From: Eledone cirrhosa
Lineage: Eukaryota
Direction: 5' to 3'
DNA length: 64,000 nt
NCBI GenBank assembly: GCA_964016885.1
Contig: OZ024750.1
Span: 11,718,001 to 11,782,000 of the forward strand
The notes beneath the pieces are model-generated. The model was not told the DNA's origin, did not search any database, and was given only the letters and a program-made list of their open reading frames with translations. The position numbers were made by a program, and so were the translations under genes. The first letter of the stretch is position 1; the number at the start of each line of letters is the position of its first letter. This document shows, in pieces, positions 2,219-40,542 of this stretch.

Positions 2219-2676
2219 CAAATATTGAATACTGTATATACAATTATTGAACACTATATATTATTACAAAACATGAATGCTATCAATACGTTGATAGCAT
2301 TATTGAACACTATATATTTGATATTTGAAAATATTTTATTTTCAATTAATTAATTTTATTGTACAAAAACAATTACAACGAAACATTTCTCTCTTTCAAG
2401 TTTGTCAAAAGTCTTTCTTACCTTTTTATTATATATTTTTTTAGACATTTTTGTTTTTAGATTAAATCAAGATTTAAAGTTTATCCTAATTGTTAATTTA
2501 TCACCCCCCCCCCCCCCCCCCCCAACAGTTTCATACTGAAATATGATATCATTTTTATTGATATGAGTTGATAAATGTCTTGTACCTTTTTTAGGTTCTG
2601 TAACTAAATCTGCCATTTTCTCATTCCTCAATATATTCCTTGTTTGTTTTCATTGTCCATCCCTCTCACAACTTTT

Positions 2677-2727
<51 letters not shown>

Positions 2728-2728
2728 G

Positions 2729-2825
2729 TTCTTCCGAATGAAACAGCTCTAGTCCTGTAGAAGCCATTTCTATATTAAATATTTATACTCTATGTATTGA
2801 GTACCTTACTTACTGTGGTTACTTA
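2729..2825 (+). mobile_element. 5'-truncated copy of HHR element family B (3' half of ribozyme plus tail)
   Basis: GAATGAAACAGCTCTAGTCCTGTAGAAGCC...TATTGAGTA matches the reverse complement of 3535-3625; (TA)n lies on both sides. Confidence 0.7.
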
Positions 2826-3121
2826 TAAGGATAAAGTTATATATATATAAAATTTAGTGTAAGTCGTGTATTGTAATCGGGGGTAATGTTATCAAACGGT
2901 TATTGTTATCAAAACTCAATAAGTCTCCTCCCCCACACACACACACACTCCCAAATCCCTCTCTCGTGTTTGTCTTATATTATTAGCCGGTTATTGTTCC
3001 TGTAAAAGCTTCGCCACTTAAACATTCACAATATGCTGATTTTAAATGTATGTTTATATATATATATATATATATATATTAGAATATAAATATTAATAAA
3101 ATAGATGTTCTTTTGATCAAT

Positions 3122-3180
3122 TACATTTTATTATACATATTTCGGATGTACAACAGTACGTCCTCATCAGACAAAATATA
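3122..3180 (-). ncRNA. Type I hammerhead ribozyme motif (mirror copy)
   Basis: Exact reverse complement of 3278-3336. Confidence 0.8.
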
Positions 3181-3277
3181 ATGATACATGACATACCCTG
3201 AGATGTTAAATGGTTAAGATTTAATCAAGGTAGTTAAATCTTAACCATTTAACATCTCAGGGTATATCATGTATCAT

Positions 3278-3336
3278 TATATTTTGTCTGATGAGGACGT
3301 ACTGTTGTACATCCGAAATATGTATAATAAAATGTA
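3278..3336 (+). ncRNA. Type I hammerhead ribozyme motif
   Basis: Stem I TATATTTTGT/ATAAAATGTA; CTGATGA at 3288-3294; stem II GGACGTAC-TGTT-GTACATCC; GAAA at 3315-3318; near-palindromic stem III ATATGTAT; predicted cleavage after A3326. Confidence 0.8.
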
Positions 3337-3473
3337 ATTGATCAAAAGAACATCTATTTTATTAATATTTATATTCTATTATTAATAACTCCGGAAAAAT
3401 ATTTTTTTGTAGAGTGCTTCCAATCTACTGTAAAACTCATTGAATTTTGTTTAACTCTTCAGTATATATATAT

Positions 3474-3509
<36 letters not shown>

Positions 3510-3510
<1 letters not shown>

Positions 3511-3688
3511 GTTTATGCCGGGTTCAATCGGGGGTAACCACAGTAAGGAAGATACTCAATACATAGCAGAGTAAAAATATTTAATATAGAAATGGCTTCT
3601 ACAGGACTAGAACTGTTTCATTCGGGAGAAATCAGGGCTTCCTGATGATTTCTCCTGAATGAAACAGTTCTAGTCCTGTAGAAGCCAT
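3510..3688 (-). mobile_element. Fold-back HHR element, family B
   Basis: Inverted arms 3592-3634 and 3646-3688; the longer arm continues to ~3510 and abuts (TA)n. Confidence 0.75.
3636..3686 (+). ncRNA. Type I hammerhead ribozyme motif with U-U at the base of stem II
   Basis: GGCTTC-CTGATGA-T-TTC-TCCT-GAA-T-GAAA-CAG-TTCTAGTC-CTG-TA-GAAGCC; stems I and III pair perfectly; cleavage triplet GUA ends at 3680. Confidence 0.75.
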
Positions 3689-3761
3689 ATATGCTATAGT
3701 CACTTATATATTATGGAATACTGTTGGCTGGCTTCTTGCTACAATACTTTCTATAACTTTC

Positions 3762-3805
<44 letters not shown>

Positions 3806-4178
3806 ATCAACCCATCCTCAACATGTCAAGTGGTTGTCTTGTCAGAGAATCAATCTTACATTTGTTTATTTTTGTGGGTTCATTTTTTCATGTCAATTTT
3901 TTCGTCTTGTTGTCTCTTATATATTATTTGATGTCTTATTGCCCTGAATTCAACACCCTCTCTCTCTCTCTTTCTATAGAGAGAGAGAGAGATAAATGAA
4001 GTATTTCCGTAGGAAAGGAAAAGAGAGTGCTCTATGTAGGCTACAGATCTTTTTAGTTTATGTATTTGGATATTTATATATATTTTTCCCCTCAATTTAT
4101 GCCCGTTATTTTATTTCAGCCTCACTTTCATTTATCCTAAACTCTGTTTTCAAATCCATATCCCATTCAATAATAAAC

Positions 4179-4240
4179 TTATTCTGATGAATGAAGACAG
4201 ACATAAGTGTCAAGCTCTTCAAGAAACCATTGGTAAATGA
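4179..4240 (+). ncRNA. Type I hammerhead ribozyme motif with extended stem II
   Basis: TTATT-CTGATGA-A-TGAAGA..GACA-TAAG-TGTC..TCTTCA-A-GAAA-CCA-T-TGG-TA-AATGA; (TA)n follows about 30 nt later. Confidence 0.65.
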
Positions 4241-4267
4241 ATTAATTATCTTATGTTGTTTATTACA

Positions 4268-4317
<50 letters not shown>

Positions 4318-5317
4318 TCCATCCATCCATCCTTTGGACATATCACACCCTCCTTCGTCCAGGGGCAATCAAATCAGTATTTTAATTTAATCGTGTACCT
4401 GAAGTCGATTTAATTAACTTCATTCCTTCTGTTTCTTATAAATCTACAGTGTTGTACCTATGTATAAAACACTATATAATAATGGAAGAATTTATTGCTA
4501 AAATATAAATATTCAAACATTGTTACAAGGAAACAACACATTTTAAGGAAACGTTTCAAATTGTGCCTTTTCAGTATTTTTTAAAGGTGTTCAACTGTAA
4601 CCATCTCACATTCCAGTGGTGGCCATCCTGTCTTTAAAAAAAAAAAAATTTCAACTGTAACCATCCTACATTCCAGTGGTGGCCATCCAGTGCTTTTTTA
4701 AAAAGCATTCAGACTGTAACCACCCCCCATCATTCTTTAAATCGTTCCAACTGTGACTACCCCGGGTTTTTTTTAAAAGTAGTGTTTAGTATGTTTTCGC
4801 AGTATGTTTCGTAGGAATAACCTAACTAGTTTAGTATCAAACATCGATATTTCCATATATTCACTTATTTTATTAGAGGAATCAATTTACATAGTATATT
4901 AAAAAAAACACCTCAGGTGTGAGATAAGAGGTGGGTTTCTTGAAAACTGTGACTACCATGAGGTTTCAGGCCCTTACTAGATACACCCTTCGCCGAAATT
5001 GCAAACGTTTTCCCTCCCGCTTTTCCAAATACAATTGAAAGTCCCCTAGAAAATGCGACGGTCACGGTTGGAAGGCTGTTCTGTATGGTCACGATTGTAA
5101 AAGATACCCCTTCTCCTCCTGTTACTAATGTGAAGGACCCCCAGAAATGGTGGAAGTAATATCTTTGAATATGAAACAGAGACAGAGGTAACTGAATATT
5201 GCAAGACCCTGTCTTACATTCCACTGTTTGTCGCTTGACAACTCTTACAGTTGCTTTTAGTAAACTTAAATATTAAACAAGATATTTCATGTGCCCGACA
5301 CCTAGGATTGTTTAAAC

Positions 5318-5464
5318 CAGTCCTGGGCAAACTGCGGTCCGTTTAGCTTTCTGATTGGCACACTTTATTTCAAAATTGCCTTGAATATTTTTAGTAGCGC
5401 GGCCCACCTTATGATAAACCACATCCTATGTACCCCACTGATCGAAAAAGGTTGCCCATGTCTG
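5318..5464. mobile_element. hAT-like MITE
   Basis: TIRs CAGTCCTGGGCAA/TTGCCCATGTCTG; imperfect 8-bp TSD GTTTAAAC/GTTTAGAG; homologous copies at 13895-14041 and parts at 28625-28697 and 29230-29345. Confidence 0.75.
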
Positions 5465-5869
5465 GTTTAGAGACAAGATATAATCATATTAAACAAACGA
5501 CTCGTATAATTATTGCAGTGATCCCCCACCTTAAATATATTCATTTTGGAAACAAAATTATAAGTACTTTTGCACTTGCATAATATTTATTTTTCATATA
5601 AATAGAAATTCTGTTTGTTTTGAGGAAGGGTTTATATGTGACGCTCATATTTCTGGAAGGATTGGCATTAGTAATGTATTTAATGTAGAATGACTGTGAA
5701 ATGATTCGAAACCGGGTCTCATATTCGGCTCTATTGACTCACTGTTAATTTACCTGTCTACCTGTCTACCTACAATACTTGCTACAACTATGGTTTTAGT
5801 AATATTGACACAGACTGACTCAATTCAATATTGTAGGAGTGGAATTCTATATACTGTATATGTATGAAA

Positions 5870-5920
<51 letters not shown>

Positions 5921-6025
5921 CGAACAAAAATTTCTCCAGAGAAACTCTTTCTCAAATGGTTTTTTTTACTTTGTCGAAATTTATCAATTGAAATTTACAA
6001 ACACGTAATACACACACACACTTCT

Positions 6026-6090
6026 TTCCTGATGATTTCCTCTGAATGAAACAGTTCTAGTCCTGTAGAAGCCATTTTTATATTAAATAT
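6026..6090 (+). ncRNA. HHR family B copy (stem I 5' arm shortened)
   Basis: TTC-CTGATGATTTCCTCTGAATGAAACAGTTCTAGTCCTGTAGAAGCC, nearly identical to 3639-3688; flanked by (CA)n and (TA)n. Confidence 0.7.
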
Positions 6091-6183
6091 ATGTATATAT
6101 ATATATATATATATAAAAGAGAGAGAGACAAAAAAAAAGGAAAAAAAAAATTTTTTCTTCCTCATAATCGTCTCTTTCTCCGT

Positions 6184-6222
<39 letters not shown>

Positions 6223-6818
6223 CAGTAATTATATGATTGTATCAAATACATACAAGTACACACATGTATATATATGTGTATATTTATACACACACACACA
6301 CAATCTGAAATCGATCAGCTTCGGTCAGGAGTGTTATTTTGGACAGCCAACCATAGGTGAAACAACTGACGTTTTTGCTGATATCACATAGTTGTTACCT
6401 GCAGATTTTAGTAGAACCTTACTGTTTTTCTCATTATACTATCACCTATCTAAACGTAAGATGATCTTTAGGTGGAGTATAAAAAACAGGGTAACCCCCC
6501 CCCCCTCCATCAAATTAGCTATAAATAAATGTAGTAAGGTACTGTTGGAATTCTTCAAATATTTGGGAATATCAAAACATGAAATCTTCAAAATTACATA
6601 AGCTAGAATGAAACTCGTGGTTGTTTTAAAATATATTTAAATCTGAAAACAAACGATTGAAAATAAATAGAAATCGAAGATAAAGCTTTTATTATATATA
6701 TGTCCAGCAAGCACTCGCTAATTGGAAATAAGTGATTTATTTATCTGATTAATTAATGTTATCCTTCTGACCGTGAAGTACTTTTTAAATTAGCTTGTCT
6801 CGTCAGCATTCTGTGTTG

Positions 6819-6871
<53 letters not shown>

Positions 6872-7120
6872 CAGAATGCTGACTATATATATATATATAT
6901 AAATATAAAAAAACATGAAGAAAGAATACTGCGTGGTTGCACATGGGTTACATATGATAAAAATAGTCCTTCGTCAGTGATTTTCCAACCTTCATTGGTA
7001 TTTCATCGCTAGTGTGTGTGTGTGTGAAGTATTTCCGAAGAAAAAGCAAAGGAAAATAGAGTGCTCTATGTATAGAACAGCTATTTAATTAGAAAGTGAA
7101 AACAACACAATATATAACTA

Positions 7121-7188
7121 CTCCATTACCAAAGGTTTCAGGACCCTAAACAATATTAACATACGTCTAGTTCGCTCATCAGACAGAG
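7121..7188 (-). ncRNA. Type I hammerhead ribozyme motif with long, partly degenerate stem II
   Basis: Reverse complement reads CTCTGT-CTGATGA-G...CTAGACG..TGTTTAG...T-GAAA-CC-TTT-GG-TA-ATGGAG; its downstream tail (7026-7075) resembles 3998-4045. Confidence 0.6.
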
Positions 7189-7211
7189 ATGTTATATATA
7201 TATATATATAT

Positions 7212-7405
7212 AACGAAGGAAATGTGGTAAGGAACCAGATGGACAATAATGCACCAAAGTACTCAATACTTAGGGTAGTAGATTGGGTAATAGCAACAAG
7301 TATGACCCCGACGGCAGAGCTCAAGCCGTTTCGACGGCTAATTCTGGACGGTCCAGAATTAGCCGTCGGAACGGCTTGAGCTCTGTCGTCGGGGTCATAC
7401 TTGTT
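7212..7405 (-). mobile_element. Fold-back element carrying only the 3' half of an HHR
   Basis: Palindrome 7295-7349/7351-7405 (two mismatches); minus strand reads GAAA-CGGC-TTGAGCTCT-GCCG-TC; (TA)n on both sides; degenerate relative at ~33430-33563. Confidence 0.7.
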
Positions 7406-7735
7406 CCTATATATATATATTCTCAAATCAGATTTACCAATATCGAACTGTCTCATTTATTCTATGTTTAGAGACATGTAATTTACATTAAATGATAAAC
7501 GACACATCAAAACGGAAAACAAATAAATCTGAAATTATTCCAAATTATAACAAAATAATATTATTTGTTTTGTTTTGTAAATATTTACAGCAATCGGATT
7601 GTGTGTTAACGAGGAGTGGAAAGGAAACCAAGTTCCTGCCTGATTTAGTTGAGTCAATTGCAGCAGTTAATTTTCCCCTCTTCATTATTTTAAAGCTTAT
7701 TAAACATCGTTTATTGTGGTTGACATGTCAGTCTA

Positions 7736-7771
<36 letters not shown>

Positions 7772-7774
<3 letters not shown>

Positions 7775-8193
7775 AAAGTTTTATTTAAAATTGTTGGGTT
7801 ACAACAAGTAAATATTTTATAACTGATATAAAGCACTCGACAAGTTTTTGGAGTAGATATACGATATTAAACAAATGGAAACTATATTTATAAAACCATA
7901 TTTATTTCATTATACATATTTCGGGGATACCATATTAAAAATATGGCATGCCTTCGTCATATAAAATACAATATATAAACAGTTTTATAAATAATTTTGA
8001 CGTACCATAAATATGAGCGACCATTATGGTCGCTCATATTTATGGTACGTCAAAATTATTTATAAAACTGTTTATATATTGTATTTTATATGACGAAGGC
8101 ATGCCATATTTTTAATATGGTATCCCCGAAATATGTATAATGAAATAAATATGGTTTTATAAATATAGTTTCCATTTGTTTAATATCGTATAT
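7772..8193 (-). mobile_element. Fold-back HHR element related to family A
   Basis: Palindrome 7857-8024/8026-8193 (168-bp arms, 1-nt centre, no mismatch seen), extra tail at 7772-7856, and (TA)n on both sides. Confidence 0.85.
8082..8147 (+). ncRNA. Hammerhead-like motif with C3-to-A core variant (mirror copy at 7903-7968, minus strand)
   Basis: TATTTTAT-ATGACGA-A-GGCATGCCATATT-TTT-AATATGGTATCCC-C-GAAA-TATGTA-TA-ATGAAATA; stem III is the same as in 3278-3336. Confidence 0.65.
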
Positions 8194-8215
8194 ATATATA
8201 TATATATATATATAT

Positions 8216-8490
8216 CATCATCATCGTCGTTTAACGTCCGTATTCCACGCTTGCATGGGTTTGGACGGGAGTTTTCCCACTTGAGGCAAGAGTGGTTGTC
8301 TTGCTCGCATAGGACTGTCTGGCGGGTTTTCTACGGCTGGATGCCCTTCCTAACACCAACCACGTTTACAGTATGGAACTGGGAGGTTTTTACCGTGTTA
8401 CCTACACGGCCACATTACAGCGTGGACTGTGTGTTTTTGTCGTGACACCTACACGACCTCGTTTGTTTTGGCCTGGATGTTGTACCAACA
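8216..8490 (-). mobile_element. Non-LTR retroelement 3' part with RTE-type (GAT)n tail
   Basis: CATCATCGTCGTTTAACGTCCG..CATGGG..GGATGCCCTTCCTAACACCAACC; near-identical to 41358-41640 and inverse of 42750-43055. Confidence 0.75.
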
Positions 8491-9079
8491 TAATATATAT
8501 AATAGTAATGGTAATAGTAATGGTAATAAACATAATATATATATATATAATAGTAATGGTAATAAACATAATATATATATATATAATAGTAATGGTAATA
8601 AACGAAAGATATATATATTTTATATCATCACTATTTATTTCATTATCTGTTATTTCATTATTTCGAATCTGTTATAAACATAAATCAGTTGATTACATAT
8701 CAACTAAGTCTTTAACTCATTGTTTATATATATTTATTTATTCTGGGTTCGAATGTTAATAATACGAACTTAACTGGTCATTGAGTGAGTGTGGAAACGA
8801 CCGAGGCTGAGTCCATTCTATTCGACATGCTTCGTCTCATATATATATATACATTTTTTGGGGACACTCTGTATGAATGTATATATATATATACATACAT
8901 ACACACACACATACAAGGTGTCCCCCAAAAATGTATACACACTTCGACAGCATTCTAATAAATATTGCCTGTACAGGTAATCAAAGTATGTATACATTTT
9001 TGTGAGACACTCTGTATATAAACGAAGCACATTGTGCCAAAAGTAGAAACAATTATTTATGATAAAGCTATTAAAGCTG

Positions 9080-9255
9080 AGCAGTGGATTGGCAGTATTG
9101 GTAGAGGGTCGGACGCCATGCTTTGACGTATAGAGTTACGGCCCTTGCCATTCTGAGTTCAAATCCCGCCGAGGTTAACTTTGCCTTTCATCCTTACGGG
9201 GTCGATAAAATAAAGTACCAGTAATGCACTGAATAATTGCTGGCCTTGTGCCTAA
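9080..9255 (+). mobile_element. tRNA-derived SINE with conserved GCCTTTCATCCTT-CGGGGTCGATAAAATAAAGTACCAG central domain
   Basis: B-box GAGTTCAAATCC; multiple homologous copies in the window. Confidence 0.8.
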
Positions 9256-9801
9256 CGTATTTATGATAAAGCTAGGGAAAGACACAAACGTCATTCCTCA
9301 TATGGCCTCTTCCTCCCCTGAACAAAACCCTCCCCTATGTCTGTAATATATATTATAGCTGCAAGAAAACACACTTTAAATGTTTATCTGTCAGTCAAAT
9401 CGAGCTTTTACAGAATTCTCTTCTAAGCTCATAAACTCTTTTGCAATATCTTGTTTCGTTGTCAAAGTTGGTTCATTGTCAGAACATAATTTAGGTTTTG
9501 TTTTTCACTAATAGTCTGTGTGTTACTATATTTCATATAAAATGTTGGTATTTGGCAACTATAAAGAATAACTAACTACGTAAGGACTTGTTGTATTTAA
9601 CTTTTCAACATCTAAAGAAAAATTACTTGAGGATAGAAGAGTTTCTCTAATTTTATCTTTTAAAAATGTTTAAGCATTGTAGCAATAAATAAACAACATA
9701 TTTTTCTAAATTTAAATATTTCGTTTTGCTAAACAAGGTGAGGAAATTTCCAGATGTATACGGAAATTGCATAGATGTTTACGGTTGTTATCAACTCAAT
9801 A

Positions 9802-9878
9802 CAGGGTGTCCCCAAAAATGTATACACACTTTGATTACAATGCTGTTGAAGTGTGTATACATTTTTAGGGACACCCTG
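9802..9878. mobile_element. Tc1/mariner-like MITE
   Basis: TA|CAGGGTGTCCC...GGGACACCCTG|TA with ~30-bp TIRs; related copies at ~8913-9014 and ~1520-1600. Confidence 0.85.
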
Positions 9879-9954
9879 TATATATAAATCTACAGACAAA
9901 TATACTTATAGCTATTTAGGTTTTTTTGTGAAAAACAAACCAATAAAGTTATTC

Positions 9955-10163
9955 ATCTTCTTCACCCAGGGTCGTGGGGGAAGAGTCCTGAAACACTCCT
10001 TCTAGCAGGTCCTGTCAGAAACAACTGATCTGGTTGGATCCCCAAGCTTGACCTGCCAAGCTCATGGATGTTATCCAACCATCTTGCTTGGGGTCTACCC
10101 TCTGGTTGGTTTTTGCCCGTAAAATCTGTCCAGCGGTTCTTTCCTGAGACATTCTAACCACAT
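9955..10163 (-). mobile_element. RTE-type LINE 3' fragment
   Basis: Minus strand encodes GRPQARWLDNIHELGRSSLGI; homologous to 22628-22872. Confidence 0.75.
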
Positions 10164-10559
10164 GCCCCCCCCCCCCCACACACACACAACTCCATAGTTT
10201 CAGAGCTGTGATCTCTCAGATTCAGAGAGGTAGTGGGTGACACCTGATGATACATCTATTCCTCAATTAATACTCTTCTCTGCTGTGTTTTGACAATAGT
10301 TATCTACATTTTGTTGCTTATAGTAAGATAAGAATGTATATAGCACAACTCAAGTAAAAGCTAAGCTTTAATTATGTATGAACCGGAATCTCTTGAGGGA
10401 ATTATAGGAATGCTGTAGTGACACACAGCATTTCTTGGGACATTTTTTAAACCTGGCAAAACCCATCTCCTCTCCAGGTCTGGATACAGCCTATTTCTTC
10501 CAGAGGATAAAGTATGAGAGAAAGGAAGTGAGAAAAATATAGAAGAAGAATTGACCCCA

Positions 10560-10770
10560 GTATTAGATTGGCAGAATTGGTAGAGCTTCAGATAAAATAC
10601 CATTGTGGTATTTGTTCTGTTCTGGCTTTCGCTTCAAATCCTACCGAGTTAAACTTTGCTTTCCATCCTACCGGGATCAATAAAATAAAGTACCTGTCAA
10701 GAACTGGGGTTGATTTAATCAACTTTGCCCTTCTCCCAAATTTTCTGGCGTTGTGCCTAAATTAGAAATC
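10560..10770 (+). mobile_element. tRNA-derived SINE (same family as 9080-9255)
   Basis: TGGCAGAATTGGTAGAGC A-box, AACTTTGCTTTCCATCC core and GTGCCTAAATTAGAAA end. Confidence 0.75.
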
Positions 10771-11799
10771 AATATATTATATAGCGATGGAACTAAGATT
10801 TCTTAGCAAGAGTAACAGTGACTTCATGTATTACAGTATTAATGCCATGAGATGAACATGTTCCAGCTGGTTTGAAACTAAATTCACTTTATGACACTCA
10901 AAGACTATATTACTGTTATTGATTATTTCTAACATAGATACAAATAGGTTTACAATAGGTTTATGGGAAGAAGGCAATTTTATACTTATCATTTATTTCT
11001 AAGAGCATTCATTAAAAATAGAAGATAAAACAACACCTACCAGGAATTAGAACATTTATAGATGTGGCTAGCTTTTTTGAATCAGGTATGTCAGTTTTCA
11101 AACTTAATTGAAACACATGGGTCGTGTATTTCATTAGGAATATGGTAAGGAATGGATTTATTTTAACCCTTTAAGTAATCCTTGATAACAAGATATTTCA
11201 GGAAAACTGAATTTGTGAAAGGTTTAAGCTTAAAGGGATGATCCGACTTAGGTTTAAAATATAAATACTATGTATCAGAGAAGACTGAATTGATGTTTGC
11301 TCTGACAAAAGTAGAAAGGAGCAGAATTGTGGTTACCAATGTATTACTTCCTTAACAGCTGAGCAGAATCAAAGACTGATTTATCATTGAATCACATATT
11401 TCAGCGTGTGGCATTCAAGATATTTGAAGGAGCTGAGCCTCCGACAATGAAGGTTTTGTCATTGTTGGTGGTTCATCTTATTAAAGTATAAGGTGATGCG
11501 TATGAGGGGTATTTGGTTGTTCCAGTGCCTTAGCCTTATTATTGCTTGCAGTAATGCCACAAGTCTTTAGGGTTGCCTCAGAAATGCCACGAGTCTTTAG
11601 GGTTGTCTCAGAAATCTTTTATACACCAACACTAGCATTCTCTGCTGTAATTAAGGGAGTATGCATGTCTTATTTTTTTTTCTGACCTATTTTTATTCTT
11701 ATTGTCCACCTTTTTGTGTAATAAAATAGTTTGATTTAAAAATAAATCTAAAAAAAAATAATAAACATGAGAAAAACTTGCCATGTTAAACTATGTTAA

Positions 11800-12016
11800 C
11801 CCTTTAGCATTTGCAATATTCTCTATATACTATTGTATTTTCGTGGTGAAGGCTTTATCTTACATTATTATCTCACGTATCAAATTTATGAGATTTTGAT
11901 ATTATTCATTTTAAGAACAATACTTTAACAATGGTCTGAGTGGCCAGTTATGGCTGGTTTGGGCAGTGGAGGTGAGAGAATTCTGGCCGAATACAGTCGG
12001 TTTGAATGCTAAAGGG
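11800..12016. mobile_element. TTAA-flanked (piggyBac-like) MITE
   Basis: TTAA|CCCTTTAGCATT...AATGCTAAAGGG|TTAA; homologous copies at 15496-15659, 26079-26297 and ~50418-50637. Confidence 0.8.
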
Positions 12017-13087
12017 TTAAGATGGGAAGTATTTCACCAATATCCATGGAAATGTTTAGAAAAATGTAAGTACAATACTGTAAGTACAATATAGACATGA
12101 GTGATGTTTAGTTGCTACAAGTTTCAAGAGCTCTCTCTAGCTTTTGATCTATCTGAGGTAAATAATAATCTTACAACTTGACACACTTTACTTTATTTTT
12201 TTTTCTCTTCCTTTCTTTTTCTCTTTCTTTCTTTCTTTCTTCCTTTCTTCCTTCTTTTCTTTCTTCCTTTTCTTTCTTTCTTCCTTTCTTCCTTTCTTCT
12301 TATTTTCTCTCTCTCTACCCCCTCTCTCTCCAACAACTTGAGTACCTCTTTTCATAGACACTTTACAAATCACAAAATTACCCCCCAATTTGTTGCTAAA
12401 ACTGAATTTCACTATTCTAACCTGCTAGTTTGTAAGTTTTTATTGATTTAACAAAATGACCCCAGTAATTTCATGTTGTTGCTCTTTCCCTGAACTTTGT
12501 TCCTGTAGGTTAAATTTTTCTCTTCTAAATATATATATATTGTCTGTTACTTTTTCTTTTCTTTTCTGTCTAAATCCACTTCATTTGTCATGTTCAATGA
12601 GTACGACTATAAATTGTAGCCTCTAAGCCACACAAACCAGTCTTCACTTTAAACCCACTCCAGTTTGCCATGTTGAATAGTTTTCAACATTGTATTTTTG
12701 TTGTTGTTGTAATTTGTGTTTTTCTTTTCTTAGTATTTCTGGCTTTGTTTTCCTGTCTACCTACAGATAACTTTAGTTTTTCTTTATCTTTAGATTGGTT
12801 TGTTTAAAATAATATATATATATTTTTTTACTATTTTAGTCAGTAAAGAAAGAGCTGTGTTTATGACCCTTTTCAGGGCTCTCTTGTACTGTTGGATAGA
12901 AGGGAGGGAGGAAAGATGGAAGGTATCCTGAAAACAGGGAAACCTAGCTTGAATGCTTGCAAACACAAAGGATTTTGCTGAAGACATCTCTATCATTAAG
13001 TCCTCCCAAAGATCTCTCATGACATACAACATCATAGAAGGCAAGTTAAACACCTAAACAGGTATGAGCCATAACAACACTCTGCTG

Positions 13088-13225
13088 GAAATTGGAGTGT
13101 CTGTTCCAATGTGTCTCCCTCACTGTCCTCTGAGGCAATATATTCTCCATCCTGTTGGCCAGGACCTAGAAATGGAGGGTAAGTTAGTTGGAGATGGAGG
13201 ATACTTGTTCGGATGTCACAAATTT
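13088..13225 (+). mobile_element. Degenerate CRE-like non-LTR retrotransposon C-terminal remnant
   Basis: Translates LECLFQCVSLTVL*GNIFSIL; homologous to the reverse complement of 43965-44095. Confidence 0.55.
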
Positions 13226-13894
13226 ACATATTCTTCACATCATAAAATTATGATGGAAGTCTTCATTTAAACTCTTTCAAAATGACACATTTTGTCTCAT
13301 AGAATAGGGAGCAGGCAGCAGGCTAGTATATAAAAAGGTCTAGCAGCAAAATATAATAAGAAATTTATTTTTAGTATTTGAAATACTTGTGAGAGGGAGG
13401 GATATACTTTCAGATTTTCTCAAGTGACCATTTATAGTACTTTAGTTTAGCATCACTTTACACAGTTTTTAAGATATACCAGTGAAATGTTTAGCACTTC
13501 CTTTAAATAATACTGTTTAAATATCCCCCCCCCCCCCCCTCTCTGTATTCTTGTACTAATTTGTTATCTGGGTATCTGGGAAGTTTTCTCTCTATTGCTG
13601 AATCATAGCTCTTGTTACTGGTTGGTAACTTGACCTTGCTTAAAATGTGACTTCTACACACAGAGAAACAAATAAAAGAAGATACTTTATTGACCCTGGA
13701 ATCATATAAACTCTTCACAGACTTATTAGAATGGTGCCTTGTAATCCTGATAAACATCCAATTATTTCAAGCACTTATCAACTGTATGAGAAATTCTTCA
13801 AGTATTTTTGTTTTATCCTTTTCCTGGTGTCCTGAGATTTAGTGAAATTACAAACTTGATATTTATTTTATTTGTTCTCATCTACAGTCTAAAC

Positions 13895-14041
13895 TAGGCA
13901 TGGGTAACCTTCCTTGAGCAGTGGGCCGTATAGGATGTGGCTCACCATAAGGCGAGCCGCACTAATAAAACAATTCAAAGCAATTTTGAAATTAGGTGTG
14001 CTATTCAGAAAGCCAAAAGGACCGCAGTTTGCCCATGATGT
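13895..14041. mobile_element. hAT-like MITE (inverse orientation to 5318-5464)
   Basis: TAGGCATGGGTAACC...AGTTTGCCCATG ends; internal homology to 5318-5464. Confidence 0.7.
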
Positions 14042-14214
14042 GTTTAATTGATAAGAACTTCTTCCTTCTTTGGGGGTACCACATAATATATCTTTTTCAT
14101 TCTTTAGTATACTTAAAGCTTTACAATGTAGGTAAAAAGTCTACTCCTCTAGGTTTACTTGCTGCTGGGTAGACCATGTTATTGAACCAGGTAAAATTAC
14201 ATATTTATGACCTA

Positions 14215-14685
14215 TCACAAAACAAAACAATGCATGGATGGATGATGTTAGTGGGCATGAAGGAGTTGTGAGAAAAACTGGGTATAAGAGGAATCAGATG
14301 TAGTGTGCAAGAGAGATGATGGTTACTTGATGAAAAAGTGCCAGGAGATGCCAGATGCCTTTGGAAGGAAGCTGCAGTTAAGGAAGACTGAAGAAAAACC
14401 TGGTCAAAGGTGATTACAGGTGATCTCTCAACACTAAACATCATAGTGGAGATCTTGAAGGTCAGCACTGGGTGGTGGTCAGCTGTGTTGGTGAGGAACT
14501 GTCTGGCCTGTGAACCTCACAGAGGAGATCTCAAAGGACCGCACTAGGTGGAGGTAAGCTATGTTGGTGAGGAACTTTCTGGCCTGTGAACCTCCACGAA
14601 GGACAGCACTGGGTGGAGGTAAGCCATGTTGGAGAGGAACTGTCCAACCTATTCAAGCATGAAAAACACGGGTGATAATGATAAA
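14215..14685 (+). mobile_element. Degenerate RTE LINE 3' fragment with internal duplications
   Basis: Homologous to 31585-31884 and 41727-42030 (GAAAAACTGGGTATAAGAGGAATCAGATG; AAGAAAAACCTGG; CAAGCATGAAAAA tail). Confidence 0.65.
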
Positions 14686-15495
14686 TGAAGCAGAGTTATT
14701 TCTTTACAATCACTTATTTATCTTTAGGAAAGAAGTTATTAAAAAATACAAAATATTTGGCCATATACTGTTGGGTAGGTCATTCTGAAACTCTGGGAAT
14801 TTATCTGGATGGTCAAGTATTTTTAGCACCCAAAAGTCAATGTGGTGCTACTTATTTTTAGTTAGGACACAAATAGAACAGTATCTCTCTTATGTCTTGT
14901 TCACAGCCATGATAATGATGTCATACATTATACTTCTTTTAGATCACCTAGTCAATATGTCTCTATAGTTGCTGCTCTTTCTAAATTACTATTATTAATA
15001 TTGTTTTTATTTTTAACCATGTTATTCTAAATTAGACATGTCATTGCTCTTTAGTTTACTTTTGTCAACCTGATCAAAGCCATACTGGAGCAACACCTTC
15101 ATAGTGGATTTCATATATTTCACTAGTTATATATTTTTATCTATGTGACTATAAAAACTAAAATATGACTGGTTATCTGGTAAATATTTCAACAAATTCT
15201 AACAAATTAAAAATAACTTAATGTCTTTACTTGTAAAACCAGTTATAGTAGCTAATTTTCCAGTGTCTACCAGTATTTTTTAATAGGTTAAACAATTCCT
15301 TCACAAGACAATGATCTTTTCTCTTTCTTCTTATGATATAACTGTTATGTCCAGTACCATATAAAGTCACTCTAACATGACATTCTTGAGAAGTGCAAAA
15401 CACCACTATGATGACTGCATCACATTAGAATTTAGTCTTTACTTTAATACTAGTAAAGATATTAAAAAATATTTGAATTAACTAACTTGCCATAA

Positions 15496-15659
15496 CCCTT
15501 TAGCATTTACATCACTCTATATTTACTATTATATTTTCATGGAAAAGGCTTTACCTTACATAATATAGAATCTATGAGATTTTGACATTACTTATTTTGA
15601 GAACAATACCCTAACATCAGTATGAGTGGCTGGATACAGCTGGTTTAAATGCTAAAGGG
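15496..15659. mobile_element. piggyBac-like MITE (internally deleted copy)
   Basis: CCCTTTAGCATTT...AAATGCTAAAGGG|TTAA. Confidence 0.75.
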
Positions 15660-15792
15660 TTAAGATATTTTCAGCTAAATCGTTACAGGGTGTTAAGAGT
15701 TAAAAACAAGTTAGGTTTTTTATTATTTAGTTGTTTAAGTTGTCGTCATTTATTTATATATATTTTTTGTGTGTGTTTCTTACAATTAGTTA

Positions 15793-15959
15793 CCGTATTT
15801 CCTGGCGCCGAAGACGCTTCGTCCTCGAGGACACACCCTAATTGTGACAACCAAAAATATGAAAAAAAAAAAATAATAAACAACCTTTGGCCTCCATGAA
15901 ACAGATTTTTGAGACTTATTTTAGGAAAAAAGTAGCGTCTTCGACGCCGGGAAATACGG
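15793..15959. mobile_element. Tc1/mariner/pogo-like MITE
   Basis: TA|CCGTATTTCCTGGCGCCGAAGACGC...GCGTCTTCGACGCCGGGAAATACGG|TA; second copy inverted at 34481-34631. Confidence 0.85.
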
Positions 15960-16232
15960 TAATATTTAATATAGCATTGTTATGACAATTACCAATGAAG
16001 GTTTGTTATTTAGAATACGAGCTGTTTGTTTGGTATTGGAGACCTTTCTCTTCTTCCACTTAGAGATGTTGCTGAAATGTTAAAATATTCTCTTAGCATT
16101 TAAGCCTTATATTTTAGATAATATATATTTCATGTCATTTGTGACATATTTTCTTTCTTTTTTCTAGAACAAATTTCGTTAAATGAGAAATAGATTAAAC
16201 TGTTACATAACTAAAATATGTTTTATTAATAA

Positions 16233-16411
16233 GGGCGGTGAGCATAGAGTTACGGCTCTTTATGATCTGAGTTCAAATCCCGCCGAAGTTAACTTTGCCG
16301 TTCATCCTTCCGGGGTCGATAAAATAAAGCACCAGTAACGTACTGGGGGGTCGATTTAATCGACTTTCCCCTCCCCTCAAATTACTGGCCTTGTGCCTAT
16401 ACTAGAAATCA
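16233..16411 (+). mobile_element. tRNA-derived SINE (family of 9080-9255)
   Basis: GAGTTCAAATCCCGCCGAAGTTAACTTTGCC..CATCCTTCCGGGGTCGATAAAATAAAG. Confidence 0.8.
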
Positions 16412-16469
16412 TTAAAAGTATTGTTGTTATTATCATTAGAGAGCAGTGGTGAGTTGGCAATATATCATA

Positions 16470-16735
16470 ACCCATATTCATTCAAGACATAAAAACAATA
16501 GGAAATATGGAATTTCACATTTGAAAGTAAAAACCTGTGTAATATTCACCTCCAAAGCAAAAATATATTAGCATCTCATTTACATAGAATTTTGAAGTTG
16601 GTGAAAATTGGCAAAATATTGACACCCCCCCCCCCCCCCCCCTTATGCCATTGATTTTTTTTTTTTTCTTTGTTTTGTTTTGTTTTTTTGTCACACATAT
16701 TTCTCGGCTTCTATATGAGTATATTCAGTAAATAA
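16470..16735 (+). repeat. Unclassified dispersed repeat
   Basis: Aligns by eye with 27160-27425 (AAAAACAATAGG, GTGTAATATTCACCTCCAAAGCAAA, GCAAAATATTGAC). Confidence 0.65.
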
Positions 16736-16974
16736 AAACAGTGTAAAAAATATTTCAGCCTCTCTGGTGGAATATGGAACTCCTGTGTGGTTATGAAATA
16801 ATTTCTGTGTTGGTGGATGCCAAAATTTGTAATTTGATATTTATTATCTTTAGTGAAGTCTACCTACATATGTAATTACCTCTCAGAAGCCACTAGTGGA
16901 AAATGGTAGTTATAAAGAATTAAAGGATTTTTTCATCTTTTTTTTTTTTTTTTGTATGTGATTCTTTCTTACTC

Positions 16975-17560
16975 CCTATCTGTCTTCTTTTCTGTCTGTC
17001 TGTCTGTCTACCTTTCATCCTTCCTATCTGTCTTCTTTTCTGTCTGTCTGTCTGTCTACCTTTCTGTCTGTCTACCTTACTTACTGCCTGCCTACCTGTC
17101 TGTCTACCTTACTGCCTGCCTGCCTACCTGTCTGTCTACCTTACTTACTGCCTGCCTACCTGTCTGTCTACCTTACTTACTGCCTGCCTACCTGTCTGCC
17201 TACCTGTCTGTTTACCTTACTTACTGCCTGCCTACCTGTCTGTCTACCTTACTGCCTGCCTACCTGTCTGTCTACCTTACTTACTGCCTGCCTACCTGTC
17301 TGTCTACCTTACTTACTGCCTGCCTACCTGTCTGTCTACCTTACTTACTGCCTGCCTACCTGTCTGTCTACCTTACTTACTTACTGCCTACCTGTCTGTC
17401 TGTCTACCTTACTTACTGCCTACCTGTCTGTCTGTCTACCTTACTTACTGCCTACCTGTCTGTCTGTCTACCTTACTTACTGCCTGCCTGTCTGTCTGTC
17501 TACCTTACTTACTGCCTGCCTGTCTGTCTGTCTACCTTACTTACTGCCTGCCTGTCTGCC
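16975..17560. repeat. Compound tetranucleotide repeat (CTGT/CTAC/CTTA/CTGC)
   Basis: Seen directly in the sequence. Confidence 0.95.
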
Positions 17561-17645
17561 TTCAACAACATTCTGTTTCTAAATCATGAAATTGTCATCC
17601 ATTTTATAAGGGAATATAAATTGTAGAATCAAGTTGTCAGTATAA

Positions 17646-18131
17646 GCTAGTTAAGTATTACTGGTACACAGTTCCTCAGCTAGTTAAGTATTACTGGTAC
17701 ATAGTTTCTCAGCTGGTTAAGTATTACTGGTACACAGTTCCTCAGCTAGTTAAGTATATTTGGTACAGTTTCTCAGCTAGTTAAGTATTACTGGTACATA
17801 GTTTCTCAGCTGGTTAAGTATTACTGGTACACAGTTCCTCAGCTAGTTAAGTATTTCTGGTACACAGTTCCTCAGCTAGTTAAGTATTACTGGTACACAG
17901 TTTCTCAGCTAGTTAAGTATATTTGGTACACAGTTTCTCAGCTAGTTAAGTATTACTGGTACATAGTTTCTCAGCTGGTTAAGTATTACTGGTACATAGT
18001 TTCTCAGCTAGTTAAGTATATTTGGTACACAGTTTCTCAGCTAGTTAAGTATTACTGGTACATAGTTTCTCAGCTAGTTAAGTATTACTGGTACACAGTT
18101 TCTCAGGTAGTTAAATATTACTGGTACATAG
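17646..18131. repeat. Minisatellite, ~33-bp unit AGCTAGTTAAGTATTACTGGTACACAGTTTCTC, ~15 copies
   Basis: Direct tandem repetition with no unique spacers. Confidence 0.95.
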
Positions 18132-19186
18132 TCTGTCAGGTTTTAGAGAATGTATATCTATATATATGTGTGTATGCCTGACACTACAAAATGTCATATT
18201 GATACAGTTTATAAAAGACATCAACAGTGTCATTATTTATGCCACTGTTGATGTCTTGGCTGCAGTGTGGTGGTTCACTGAACATTGATAGTATATATAT
18301 TTACCATACTTAAAATAAAGTATGGGCTGACATCAGGAAGAGCATCTGGCTATAGAAAACTTGGTCCAAAACGTCTTGTCCCAATTTATTGCAGATGTAA
18401 AAATGGGTATGTCGAAATATTGATTCTTGTTCTTTCTTATGAACTGCAATTATTAAGTTACTGTGTTTTGAAATACATTTATCAATATCAGTATTATTTA
18501 TATGACTTTCTATTATCAATTTACTATTCACTTTGTTTTAGGAATAGACATATTCAGATGATATAGAAATAATATTAGTTGCAACAATGGTTGAGAAGAA
18601 ATAGCACTTGGATTCTGTTATTTAATCCATAAATATATAGAGGTCACCAGTACTTAGTGTAGTAATTGGATGTTTAAAGAATGCTAGACTGGTTTGACTT
18701 GGAAAGTCTTTATTTATTTAGAAACCAAAGGTAGGATGGTGTTGTAAGTAATGTACTGTATGGCAGTGAAATCAGGGCAATTCAATGTAGTTTGTTTGTA
18801 ATCTCTGGAGATGAATTCTGAATACTAGTCACTAAGAATGTAATATATACCTACAATGAGATAAATTAGATTTATGATGAGCCAAGAAAAACAACCAAGA
18901 ACGAGAAACATCAAATGTTACTGGCAAGAGACAGAAACTTAAGTGAGGATTTTTATATTTATTTCATGATAACATAAGTATTATTAGGGATTATTTTTCA
19001 TATTTAGTTGTTTTATAATGATTATCTTCTGTTTATGTTTATAAAATATTTTTACAAAATTACCGTCATAAGTTTTCCTAATCTGAATTAGAATTTGGAG
19101 GAGATTTTTTTTTTTTCCGTTTTCATTTTTATCTTATCTTATCTTGAGTTTTTGGATAAAATCCAGTTAAAATTTGCAAGTTTAAT

Positions 19187-26297: not shown

Positions 26298-28720
26298 TTA
26301 AGGAATTTACTTTCAGTCATCAGGTCTTGGCTTCAATCCCACAACATAGCATGTTAGCAGAGCTTTGGGTTGACAACATCTTTGTGCATGAATTTGGATA
26401 GGCAGAGACTATTTGGAAGCCTGTCAGGCTGCTGTACCAATAACTCACCACACCAACCTTATCACACACTATATTACTCACAATTTCCTCTATGGGTTCA
26501 CATGTCTGTGGAATACTCAGCCACATATTAATTTGCATCAATTATCCTGTATGATTAGGTATGAAAGAGATGCCTATGATTTTCAGATCATTTGGAGGGA
26601 TTTAACTTAACTTTCTCTTTATTAAGTTGGTATTAGGAACATGACATAACACAGGTTCTTACATAACTTTATGATTGACAGTTTTTAGATAAATATAAAC
26701 ACTTTAAAACAAACATGTTTATATCACAAAACTATGCCTGGTTTCAGGCAGCTTGATATCAAAAGGAATATGAATGTTTTGTGTCTATAATTCAATATCT
26801 CATTGCTTACTTTATCTAAATTCATGCCATTGGCTCACTTAAGTTATTTCCTGTTGCTCCCCTTTTGTAAATAGAGCTAGCAGTTATAACACAATGGTTG
26901 TGTTAATGAACCTGTACTGTACATATTTGAATATATATGCCCCTCCTATTTTTTGTCTGAGAAATAAGTAAAAAATCAAACCCTGTTTATAAGCCAAATG
27001 CAGCTAATCAACATGTTTAGATGGTACAGTTTTGAAATTGAGTGGAGAATATATTTATGAACTTTTAATATTTTGATATTTGAAATGTTTATAGTATAGA
27101 TTTTGTTTCACAATTCCGTTACACAATGATTTACAGCCAATTTTAGACCATTTTGAAGGTCATGTTCATATCAAAAACAATAGGTAATATGATTTTCACA
27201 TTGAAAATGAAACCAGTGTAATATTAACCTCCAAAGCAAAGCTGGTGTAATATTCACTTCCAAAACGAAAACATTTCAGCACTTCATTTATATAGAAAAT
27301 TGAATTCAGTGAAAAATCAGCAAAAATATTGACCTTGAATATAAGTTGAGGCCCCCCTCCCCCATTTTATCATCAATATTTTTTGTCATATATTCCTTGG
27401 CTTATATATGAATATATACAGTAATTACTACAGTACCTTAACATTAAAAATAAAACAACGGTAAAATAGGTTTTATATTTTGTTATATATGTCATTTGGA
27501 AGCTTAGCTAATTGATTGTTATTGAGATTTAACAAGTTCACTCTTTGAGAGTTATTAAGCTTTGCTTTTTAGCATTGCATGACAGAATTTTTAATTATAG
27601 TATTCAGTCACCTACTTTGGATTATTTCATATTTAACAAAGTTGTCCGAGAAAAGACCAACAGATCATGTACAAATGTTATCTCTTATTTAACAATATGG
27701 AATCAGCTCTATGGATTGACCTTTTATAGTTTCTTGCTGCTAATTGAAGCATTTGTAATTATTTATTTATTGGATTTGTGATTAGCTAATGCATAAATGA
27801 TTAGACTAACCAAGAGGATTATAATGAGATAACTCTGTATGAACTTGGCCGGCAATTGAAGATGATATCATTGTAGTATTGTCGTAAAGTTAGGGCTCTA
27901 ACTAATTAGGGTTTAAACTCATTGACTGGCAGGAGACCCGGGGTTAGGTCCCAAGCAAGATGGTTGGATAACATCCATGAACTTAGCTCATCATTGAAGA
28001 TGATATTGTAATATTGTCATAAAGTTAAGGCATCACTCCTTCATAGTCAGCCTATGAACTTTTCAGCCCACCCTCGTATGTAGAGGGGATAGAACCAGAA
28101 ACTATGTTAATTCTGTAGTGAACTCCTTAACCACACAGTCATGCCTGCACTTTGTATAAATATAATATATAAAAATATTTTTTCAAAGGAGAATCAAAAA
28201 TGTTGACTATTTTATTTTACATAGTTTGTAGGTGGAAGGAAGAAGTAAGAAAACAATTGTTTTGATTTATTTACTAATTGTTCAGAATTTTAAGCTGTAT
28301 CACCACTCCCAAACATACTTTCTAAACCTCTGCAACAACAAACAGGAGAGCTACTTCCAGTCCTCAACCATTTAATTGTAAATGTAATTATTTAAAATAA
28401 ACATAAATGAGAATCAATGCTGCCATTCCTATGTTCCTATCATTTAGTCTAGTGATACTACACTACACATTTTATACACTGAAACAAAATCTCAGTTTTA
28501 GTGGAATTGCTGGAGATTGTTTTAGATTTTGATTTAATAGACACAAGTCATATGTTATGTAACCCTTGACCAAAAGAAGTCAGGTTTGGGTTAGTCATTT
28601 TTATGGTGAAGAAATTAATATTTTTTAGTAGTGTGGCCACCTTATGAAGAGCTACATCTTATGTGGCACACTGCTCAAAAAAAGTTGCCCATGCCTGTTT
28701 TAGACAGTAAGATGTTGTTA

Positions 28721-28955: not shown

Positions 28956-29944
28956 GGTGGATGAACCATCATGTGCAAAGCTCAAACTTTCAAACTTATG
29001 AAGCGTTGAGGAAATAAACTTATAGAAGATATAGGATGTTCAAGTGCAGAAAATAACTTCAATTTCAGTTATTTGCTATGAAGTAGCTTATAAAAATAAG
29101 GTAAAGTCTCTTGGAGTCAGAAAAAAGATGTCAGCAGCCACTACGAGGAATCGAACTTTGCATCTATCAGTAGCAACTGAGTGCACTCACCATTGAGCTA
29201 AGAGACCTCTAACATCTTACTATCTAAAGCAGGCATGGGCAACTTTTTTGAGCAGTGTGCCACATAGGATGCAGCCTATGGCTCATAAGGTGAGCCATTC
29301 AGAAAACCAAATGGGTCCCATGCAGCTCATGGGCCACAGTTTGCTTAATCAAACGGCTTTTGAAAATGTAAACAAATGTCATGTGTGAAGCTCGAACTTA
29401 CAAAGCACCAAGGAAATATATTTATAGAAAATGTTGGGTCCTCAACCACAGAAAATAACTGCAATTACAGTCAGTTGATATAATATAGTTTATAAAAATT
29501 ATCGCAATTGTAATTATCTGACATATTTCTCTGGTGTTTATTTTTGGGTCTTTGCTCTTTGAAATAAGTATTTTGTTTTTAACTAGGCTCAAAGACTGTT
29601 TGTATTCTAGGGGTGAGGGACTGAAACGTTTTGACATCCGTGCCTTCTTAAAGGGCATTGAAGGGGAAACTTATGTCAATTAGCTTCAAACAAGAATTAC
29701 AACATTATTAGTATATTTGGCTTGTTTGGAGCACACCTCTTACACTATATCGTTCCTCTACTCGCCCAAATCTTTCTTTTTCATTAAATACAAACATATT
29801 TTTGAGAAATGTTCTTTTGTGACATTTATGCCCTTCACGTATAAACTGAATTTAATCAGAGTTGTGAGATTATCTCTTTGGCTTATCAAACTTCTAAATA
29901 AATGTTGGATGCTTTGTAGTCTGTTCCTTGGTTTAGTATAAAAA

Positions 29945-33389: not shown

Positions 33390-33432
<43 letters not shown>

Positions 33433-33561
33433 GATGGATTCAGTTTGAAACTGATTAGACCATTACTCAACAGTACTCAATACTTGGAATAGTAGAGTAT
33501 GGTTATATTATAAAGAGTTGGGACCTCAATGGCTGAGCTCATGCAGTTTTAACAGCTAGTT

Positions 33562-33599
<38 letters not shown>

Positions 33600-39300: not shown

Positions 39301-39987
39301 AATTTCTTTCTTTCATCTAATCTTGTTCTTCAGTCTATATTGACTTGTTATTTCACATAACTTTAATGATTAAAGTTAGCCACTCCACGAAGAAAAATTA
39401 TATTTAAATCTTCACTTCAAGACATTTAAAGGTCATTGCAATTAATTTATTTAATTCTCTTTTATTTTATTTTATTGCTAACAATAAAAAAAAATTTTCA
39501 AAAGTCAGTTTCAAATTTATTTAAAAAAATTTGGGTTTGCCCTATTGCTGGTATTCAAACTAATGATATTTTCAAAGTACTTCATATAAAGAAACACCTC
39601 ACCTTCATCTTATGAGAAATTTGTTGATTTATAACTGTTTTACATCCATTTTCTTTCAATACTAATATTGGTAAAAGGATTTCTTTCTTTCAAAATTGAA
39701 ATTTTTCTGTATTATTAGAATAATCGTGTGTGTATATTTGTGTTTTAATCCTTTCATTACTGTATTTCTAATGAAATACAGTGTCTTCTTCTACACCCAC
39801 TTATTTCTGAGAGAGTCGTGGAGGCCGAGTCCTCAAACACTCCTTCCAGCTGGTTCTGTTAGAAGCAACTTCAGTCCTGTATGAGCAAGACACGGTCACC
39901 TGACCTAACATTGCCCACAACAGGACAACCTGTCTAACCCATGCTAGCGTGGAGACATCTACGTAAAACGGTGATGATAATATAAAC

Positions 39988-40368: not shown

Positions 40369-40391
40369 ATGATAGGGAGCCCAGTCCCTAT

Positions 40392-40537: not shown

Positions 40538-40542
40538 ATTAA

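Follow-up and report, generated by a model that had tools for sequence, protein, structure and literature searches.

Hammerhead-bearing fold-back elements clustered at (TA)n repeats of Eledone cirrhosa as likely truncated ends of Penelope-like elements

Introduction

Within the 64,000-nucleotide stretch of the Eledone cirrhosa genome analysed here (assembly GCA_964016885.1, contig OZ024750.1, positions 11,718,001 to 11,782,000; hereafter the window), the segment 2729-8193 carries predicted hammerhead ribozymes of several families on both strands, several of them in palindromes terminating at (TA)n microsatellites, and the question raised by this locus is which kind of element left these sequences behind and by which process the palindromes were formed. 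A first-pass annotation, made from the sequence alone, had proposed either discrete non-autonomous ribozyme retroelements of 180-450 bp or extreme truncations of Penelope-like elements (PLEs), generated by snap-back synthesis during insertion into (TA)n. The analysis reported here favours the truncations as best fit: the cluster likely consists of the 5'-truncated, dead-on-arrival ends, i.e., pseudo-LTR (long terminal repeat) plus tail, of several PLE families, whereby membership of the PLEs is suggested by architecture, since no parent open reading frame (ORF) could be reached. This makes the cluster a known kind of insertion and not a new element class, and as PLE debris it is ordinary, comparable truncated and inverted ends with hammerheads being known from many animals.

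Animal genomes were described to hold thousands of minimal hammerheads each, mostly single and probably derived from truncated PLEs, and hammerhead pairs on opposite strands, 100-700 bp apart, were likewise ascribed to truncated PLEs (PMC4209133). An inverted 5'-truncated copy and a tail of 30-40 nt at one end were reported together with a bias towards (TA)n in Naiad and Hydra and towards microsatellites in Neptune (PMC8557442), and it is these two descriptions which the architecture found here matches. A purified PLE protein was reported to cut and extend either strand of AT-rich DNA, a dimer being predicted, to begin reverse transcription at two internal sites which define the tail, and to insert in vitro without need for hammerhead cleavage (PMC11167929). 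PMC8557442 treats the formation of the PLE inverted repeats and the choice of microsatellites as open questions; two-strand priming is what the in vitro results of PMC11167929 predict. The locus offers a compact system in which to test PLE integration, as spacer orientation, chimeras of two subfamilies and a tail motif, all described below, are countable genome-wide and could test two-strand priming in vivo.

Hammerhead motifs of the cluster

The window was scanned for type I hammerheads, defined by the core, stem II, GAAA, a self-complementary or closed stem III, UH and a stem I in register. Within 2729-8193 the scan returned 3120-3182(-), 3276-3338(+), 3636-3686(+), 4179-4240(+), 6025-6071(+), 7903-7968(-) and 8082-8147(+), and beyond the cluster 43772-43807(-), 55908-55946(-) and 56029-56067(+). 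The core at 7121(-) was rejected for the mismatched base of its stem II and still possesses a 6-bp stem I and a 3-bp stem III. As control served 300 second-order Markov simulations of 2729-8193, in which cores with a stem I of at least 5 bp occurred at a mean of 0.007 (maximum 1) as compared to six observed; for a stem I of at least 4 bp the simulated mean was 0.037 as compared to seven observed, a count reached in none of the 300 simulations. Stem I is paired in every family (4-12 bp) despite the unrelated sequence of the families.

Eight complete cores had been claimed for these 5.5 kb, and all of them lie where they had been placed, although "complete" was a generous term: C3 is replaced by A in both cores of element G (7903(-) and 8082(+)), position 10.1-11.1 is A.A in 4179(+) and U.U in 3636(+) and 6026(+), and stem I of 6026(+) is reduced to 4 bp. 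The additional cores assigned to 40.0, 43.8 and 55.9-56.1 kb are present as well, but the pair at 40 kb is damaged in its core, and the copies of G, of the 40-kb element and of element I all carry core changes. At position 10.1-11.1 G-C is found in family B only, the 43-kb hammerhead possessing a bulged A followed by G-U. A minimal hammerhead with palindromic stem III, which the first-pass annotation had named as a PLE feature, was identified in B, G and the elements at 40, 43 and 56 kb, whereas C/H, D/J and F possess a closed stem III of 3-5 bp. The hammerheads are predictions, and many of them are damaged.

In 2700-8250, 70 matches at E<=10 were obtained, none of them to the Rfam hammerhead models which the first-pass annotation had named as a check, and the 150 of 294 matches listed for the window include none either. 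What was matched instead were microRNA models on the palindromes and on simple repeats, these all lying under the gathering score, and furthermore 5S rRNA and a tRNA-like piece; microRNA hairpins were rejected as an identity of the palindromes, their scores lying far under gathering. Minimum-energy folding of the elements as monomers missed most hammerheads, which is expected given their weak stems and carries no evidential weight.

Architecture of the palindromes and their tails

Self-comparison of the window (self-BLAST) was used to group the elements. Family C comprises the copies at 2728, 3509-3764 and 6025 and a tail at 42.2 kb; B is related to G, D forms a family with J, and F has a relative at 33.5 kb, while the elements at 6806, 40.0, 43.8 and 56 kb are singletons. 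Palindromes are formed by B (3080-3378, arms alike in 144/145 positions), C (3592-3688, 42/43), F (7291-7409, 56/59) and G (7862-8188, 163/163) as well as by the elements at 56 kb (190/191) and 40 kb (61/76). In all of them the turn measures 1-14 nt, and the arms read outward from the centre, each terminating at (TA)n; the 1-nt turns of F and G sit within short self-complementary sequence. One arm is longer by 50-90 nt, this tail being one-sided in B, F, G and the elements at 40 and 56 kb. The proposal of one architecture shared by six elements stands for the palindromes and their turns, but C is tailed on both arms, and F holds just the 3' half of a hammerhead.

The short arm of B (3080-3233, minus strand) carries the hammerhead 3120-3182 with palindromic stem III, includes a 9-nt spacer (3225-3233) and is tailless, while its long arm (3234-3462, plus strand) carries the hammerhead 3276-3338 and an 84-nt tail which holds the 3' motif described below and terminates at (TA)n. 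The left arm of C (3509-3634, minus strand) begins inside the core, carries tail type 1, terminates at (TA)n and is 92% like element A over 97 nt; its right arm (3635-3764, plus strand) holds the full hammerhead 3636-3686, with a 6-bp stem I, a U.U-opened 3-bp stem II and a 4-bp stem III, and ends with tail type 2 at (TA)n, so that the two arms are alike over the palindrome and then diverge into long tails of different types. F (7213-7407) is folded inside stem II and possesses 3' half cores with a 5-bp stem III, its long arm (7213-7349, minus strand) bearing a 78-nt tail and its short arm (7351-7407, plus strand) none. In G (7772-8188) the identical 163-nt arms, both with the C3-to-A change, belong to a long arm (7772-8024, minus strand) with a 90-nt tail and a short arm (8026-8188, plus strand). 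Both hammerheads of the 56-kb fold-back (55790-56235) possess a palindromic stem III and a stem II opened by U.U, and its one-sided tail of about 50 nt lacks the 3' motif; the element is enclosed by a long (TA/TG) compound microsatellite block (50500-64000). The fold-back at 40 kb (39984-40194) is older and combines two damaged hammerheads with a one-sided tail that holds the motif.

The 3' ends of the arms adjoin (TA)n in A, B, C, D, F, G and H, and (TA)n on both sides was confirmed for the four elements B, C, F and G. Altogether, 17 (TA)n runs occur in 2600-8300 (5.7 kb) as compared to seven in 8300-33000 (24.7 kb). The 5' ends are found at varying places, namely within about 4 nt of the edge of stem I (J, C right, 40 kb left, H), inside the core or stem II (40 kb right, C left, A, F) or tens of bases upstream of the hammerhead (B, G, 56 kb).

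The tails had been regarded as unique, which does not hold true: in the self-comparison tail sequences recur at 2768-2822, 33472-33563 and 42232-42289, their read depth is high, and a motif of the type GA(G/A)T(A/G)CT is common to 12 of the 14 long tails, being absent from those at 43 and 56 kb. This motif often forms the 3' strand of a small hairpin and lies about 30-70 nt from the end in uninterrupted tails. A stretch of 57 nt contains it with a background frequency of 2.1%; of its 11 matches at the 88 (TA)n edges, ten are the tails described here (8 distinct ends).

Coding capacity was addressed with 141 stop-free frames, chosen from 410 by complexity, length and a position below 50.5 kb. 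None of the 141 reached the Pfam cut-off and none matched reverse transcriptase or GIY-YIG, eight weak matches on seven frames remaining below the cut-off, which agrees with the earlier statement that the elements are devoid of an ORF.

Read and contig evidence for elements A, B and C

Reads and contigs were compared with 2729-3764, i.e., with elements A, B and C, using contigs of the same species (X1, possibly the assembly's own sample), contigs of another species (X4) and raw restriction-site-associated DNA (RAD) reads of two other samples (X7 and X8). Summed contig depth, which is no measure of copy number, amounts to 10-11 in non-repeated bins, to 3.3-3.4e5 on the B arms and to about 1e6 on C, i.e., for B and C to 1e4-1e5 times that of the non-repeated bins. 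Raw reads matching 2729-3764 numbered 11,820 of 12.47 million and 12,063 of 12.79 million (about 0.095%); assuming even sampling and a genome of 2-3 Gb, copies would be of the order of 1e4 for C and 1e3 for B. Depth is also high on the tails (4e4-4e5), which identifies them as family sequence and not as copied flank.

Of the joints listed (15 of 131), four connect opposite strands, all at different places and two with more than one read start to support them, and contig depth falls from 1,021,680 at 3654 to 18,491 at 3636. Since the joints differ in place and depth falls in this manner, the turn of C seen in the window is not family-wide. The fold-backs are real as a class, with a fold point that varies between copies; for the palindromes of the window itself, no listed record spans one end to end. 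One X4 contig matches 3091-3234, spacer included, without difference and then continues for 134 nt upstream in other sequence, from which it follows that the B arm is the end of a longer unit and that the 9-nt spacer, carried by this contig as natural upstream sequence, belongs to the short arm. These findings lend no support to the idea of discrete palindromic elements of 180-450 bp, as fold points vary between copies and family B continues upstream in another species. An X4 contig moreover crosses the C turn (3607-3686, with two other letters and three gaps).

Sequence variation was found in loop II of family C (3654-3656), where position and run determine a differing share of 26-71% of depth, and among the 40 of 133 differences listed none affects a core position of this family. 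Loose ends flanking the family-C core suggest a subfamily with compensated stem I. For B, two common variants change G.U to A-U in stem I, and others (3311, 3337) leave the pairing unrestored. Head-to-tail repeats of family C were observed at joints 3577-3609 and 3639-3683; a unit of 72 nt reaches a contig depth of 3825, and joints returning from 3683 to 3639 document whole cores repeated inside 150-nt reads. Pile-ups of read ends at 3119 and 3336 were rejected as a biological signal, both lying at AATT sites that are likely RAD cut sites.

Proposed integration mechanism

For the origin of the palindromes a reaction sequence is suggested in which a complex of PLE reverse transcriptase and GIY-YIG endonuclease would nick a (TA)n run on both strands, each of which would prime a cDNA. 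The long arm with its tail would be the product of a cDNA begun at the distal start site, whereas the short arm would result from a cDNA begun at the proximal site or, as in element C, on a second RNA. Both cDNAs would halt early, often close to the hammerhead, and be joined head to head subsequently. As (TA)n would be left on both sides of each insertion, new targets may be created and the cluster may grow, and the build-up of the cluster via residual (TA)n is suggested on this basis. The hammerheads of the locus would be passengers in this process, many of them being damaged. The outward direction of the arms and their ends at (TA)n match the priming on two strands and the two start sites of reverse transcription observed in vitro (PMC11167929). 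A joining of two cDNAs from two target strands at their truncated ends also agrees with the orientation of the B spacer and with the two tails of C; for C, two templates are likely, as the tails of its arms differ and each of them recurs in the window and at high depth.

Several points weigh against this assignment. No parent ORF was found for the elements, reverse transcriptase and GIY-YIG having been matched by 0 of the 141 window frames, and pattern scans for families C and B returned no hit in metagenome contigs and none in prokaryote genomes, both being unsuitable collections for an animal repeat. The argument from the spacer comprises two contigs and one element, and read evidence covers A, B and C. 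At 50-90 nt, the tails exceed the 30-40 nt given in PMC8557442. The tail motif was defined after looking, with three variants allowed and several of the 12 matches being related copies, and is therefore a lead only. The compensated stem I of family C comes from two separate loose-end consensuses and not from one molecule, and the short head-to-tail hammerhead tandems (59 reads from 14 starts and 24 reads from 9 starts) are also expected of a retrozyme subfamily.

This last point leads to the reading that family C at least is a discrete non-autonomous ribozyme retroelement, either a miniature retrozyme or a unit resembling a short interspersed nuclear element (SINE), about 70-130 nt long, which would be transcribed from short tandems, processed by a hammerhead that may be active as monomer and moved in trans by a PLE protein. 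It would explain the very high depth, the tandem joints and the 72-nt unit, and it draws on the heterogeneity of the sequence ahead of stem I (where loose ends agree at 0.42-0.63), on the closed 4-bp stem III and on the U.U-opened stem II, a feature at the base of helix II that PMC7229834 gives for the axolotl retrozyme ribozyme as well; an origin of animal retrozymes from PLE pseudo-LTRs is argued for in bioRxiv 10.64898/2026.07.22.740005. However, no tandem array exists within the window, partial tandems are the normal insertion form of PLEs too, the animal retrozyme monomers described in the cited text measure 220-400 nt, one core is followed by several different tails and family B extends upstream, and a retrozyme identity of family C is accordingly regarded as rather unlikely. 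If true, it would render family C a tiny self-standing retrozyme, shorter than the animal retrozymes described in the cited papers.

Somewhat less probable still is the snap-back origin initially proposed, according to which the cDNA of the long arm turns back on itself and so becomes the template of the short arm. Near-identical arms with common defects would result from it (G with C3 replaced in both arms, B, and the 56-kb element), and so would the 1-nt turns of F and G in self-complementary sequence, but the B spacer lies in short-arm orientation, where folding back of the long arm would yield long-arm orientation, and the arms of C carry different high-copy tails. The proposal thus fails for B and C, while F, G and the 56-kb element are compatible with snap-back synthesis or with later conversion; the common C3-to-A change of the G arms shows just a recent common source. 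That the palindromes are fold-back artefacts of assembly or library preparation appears very improbable. The G arms are identical, no listed read or contig covers all of 2729-3764 and no long read of the locus was among the records, but the arms of the different palindromes agree to between 80% and 100% and have tails and spacers that are asymmetric, opposite strands are joined both in contigs and in the raw reads from two further samples, and the turn of C is crossed by a contig that stems from another species. Miniature inverted-repeat transposable elements (MITEs) of DNA transposons were rejected as candidates, as the arms bear hammerheads, are asymmetric and are truncated at the centre, and no terminal inverted repeats surround a spacer.

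Beyond the truncated PLE ends favoured here, a more far-reaching and speculative combination may be formulated, which we consider improbable as a whole. The palindromes would then record how a dimeric PLE enzyme primes both (TA)n strands in vivo, with two start sites on the RNA and in some cases two different RNAs; a conserved hairpin and motif of the tail would be a cis-signal common to divergent families, and family C would be a miniature retrozyme of about 70-105 nt with a monomer-competent U.U hammerhead and thousands of copies.

Comparison with known systems

Endonuclease-positive PLEs (Penelope/Poseidon, Neptune, Hydra) share with the cluster a type I hammerhead close to the end, strong 5' truncation, an inverted truncated 5' copy and a tail at one end only; common to both are also hammerhead pairs on opposite strands, targets that are (TA)n or AT-rich and a large number of families per genome. 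In contrast to these, the elements described here have no linked ORF and longer tails, and about ten pieces are assembled within 5.5 kb. The minimal PLE consensus (Cervera and de la Pena 2014) moreover possesses G-C at 10.1-11.1 and a helix III that is palindromic or absent, whereas several of the present families have U.U, C.U or A.A along with closed stems III. A U10.1-U11.1 mismatch is recorded as natural hammerhead variant in PMC3088659. Metazoan non-LTR retrozymes resemble the elements in being non-coding, AT-rich, equipped with a type I hammerhead and presumably mobilised by PLEs, but are described as head-to-tail tandems (PMC7229834; bioRxiv 10.64898/2026.07.22.740005), while the copies of the window are single or head to head and end at (TA)n, tandems occurring only as short joints in reads. 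The host DNA is AT-rich and dense in microsatellites, in which it resembles octopus genomes, and for Octopus vulgaris 31 recently active PLE families were reported in PMC13282606, in the excerpted text of which the word ribozyme does not occur. A literature search, whose coverage did not extend to most subscription papers, returned nothing joining PLE, twin priming and inverted, and by title and abstract no octopus hammerhead paper on such elements.

In LINE-1 twin priming, two cDNAs are primed from both target strands, giving rise to an inversion. There, the cDNAs cover mostly different segments of the RNA, whereas both arms of the present elements cover the same segment, yielding a palindrome.

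Viral loci found with the family-C core pattern hold a predicted type III hammerhead between phage genes (L001-L004, 2974-3030), which shows the letters of the family-C core and stem II including the U.U-opened 3-bp stem II; the four contigs are identical around the match. These four matches were rejected as copies of family C, as they represent the phage type III hammerhead, unrelated beyond core and stem II. Being a parallel form, it supports the fold of family C but not a shared origin.

Further elements and other features of the window

Element A (2728-2837, plus strand), flanked by (TA)n on either side and high in read depth, is a family-C copy cut inside stem II at its 5' end, and it retains the 3' half core, the cleavage site and a long tail of type 1. 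H (6025-6093, plus strand) is a further copy, which follows a (CA)n run, begins within stem I and has a short end at (TA)n, and a family-C tail of type 2 at 42215-42295 (plus strand) likewise terminates at (TA)n. In the D/J family, D consists of a left part (3985-4075, minus strand), a tail remnant with the 3' motif that has no recognisable hammerhead and is 80% like 7027-7072, and of a right part (4179-4271, plus strand), where the hammerhead 4179-4240 possesses a long stem II and is followed by a short end at (TA)n; J (7000-7192, minus strand) begins 3-4 nt ahead of stem I and carries the hammerhead 7121-7188 and a long tail with the 3' motif. A degenerate copy of the F family at 33430-33563 (minus strand) terminates at (TA)n, and the 43-kb element (43685-43807, minus strand) combines a classical minimal hammerhead (43772-43807) with a tail to (TA)n.

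Element I (6696-6887, minus strand) holds a degenerate hammerhead, 6806(-), with the 3' motif and a 16-nt inverted stub beyond a central (TA)n. The inverted pair concerned (6798-6887) has its 44 nt of (TA)n at the centre and not at the ends, one arm beginning the degenerate hammerhead, and so deviates from the common architecture. Next to it, 6902-6990 (minus strand) contains a 5' half-core at 6977(-), the second half of which is absent.

Among the repeats not bearing hammerheads, a full 5S rRNA copy at 40543-40661 (minus strand, Rfam 100.7 bits) starts right at a (TA)n run and is directly continued, in the same orientation, by a repeat with tRNA-like head at 40261-40540 (minus strand), for which Rfam reported a tRNA match of 32.4 bits at 40471-40528 and ARAGORN no tRNA; the unit is either a 5S copy spread by retroposition or a composite SINE of 5S and tRNA parts. 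A SINE-like repeat with a (CAT)n end, often adjoining (TA)n, is present in at least nine copies according to self-BLAST (8215-8480, 41359-41610, 42745-43054 and shorter ones). At 1070-1115, 1.6 kb from the start of the hammerhead cluster, a GC-richer spot contains what we take to be ETS-type and YY1-type motifs and may be a candidate promoter. A short inverted-repeat element at 5318-5463, flanked by a near-perfect 8-bp duplication and presumably a hAT-like MITE judging from its features, has relatives at 13888-14047, 28617-28704 and 29223-29296 (four copies in the window). Further short inverted-repeat elements at 1506-1610, 8855-9020 and 9800-9882 share a common terminal sequence and are assumed, by their features, to be Tc1/mariner-like MITEs.

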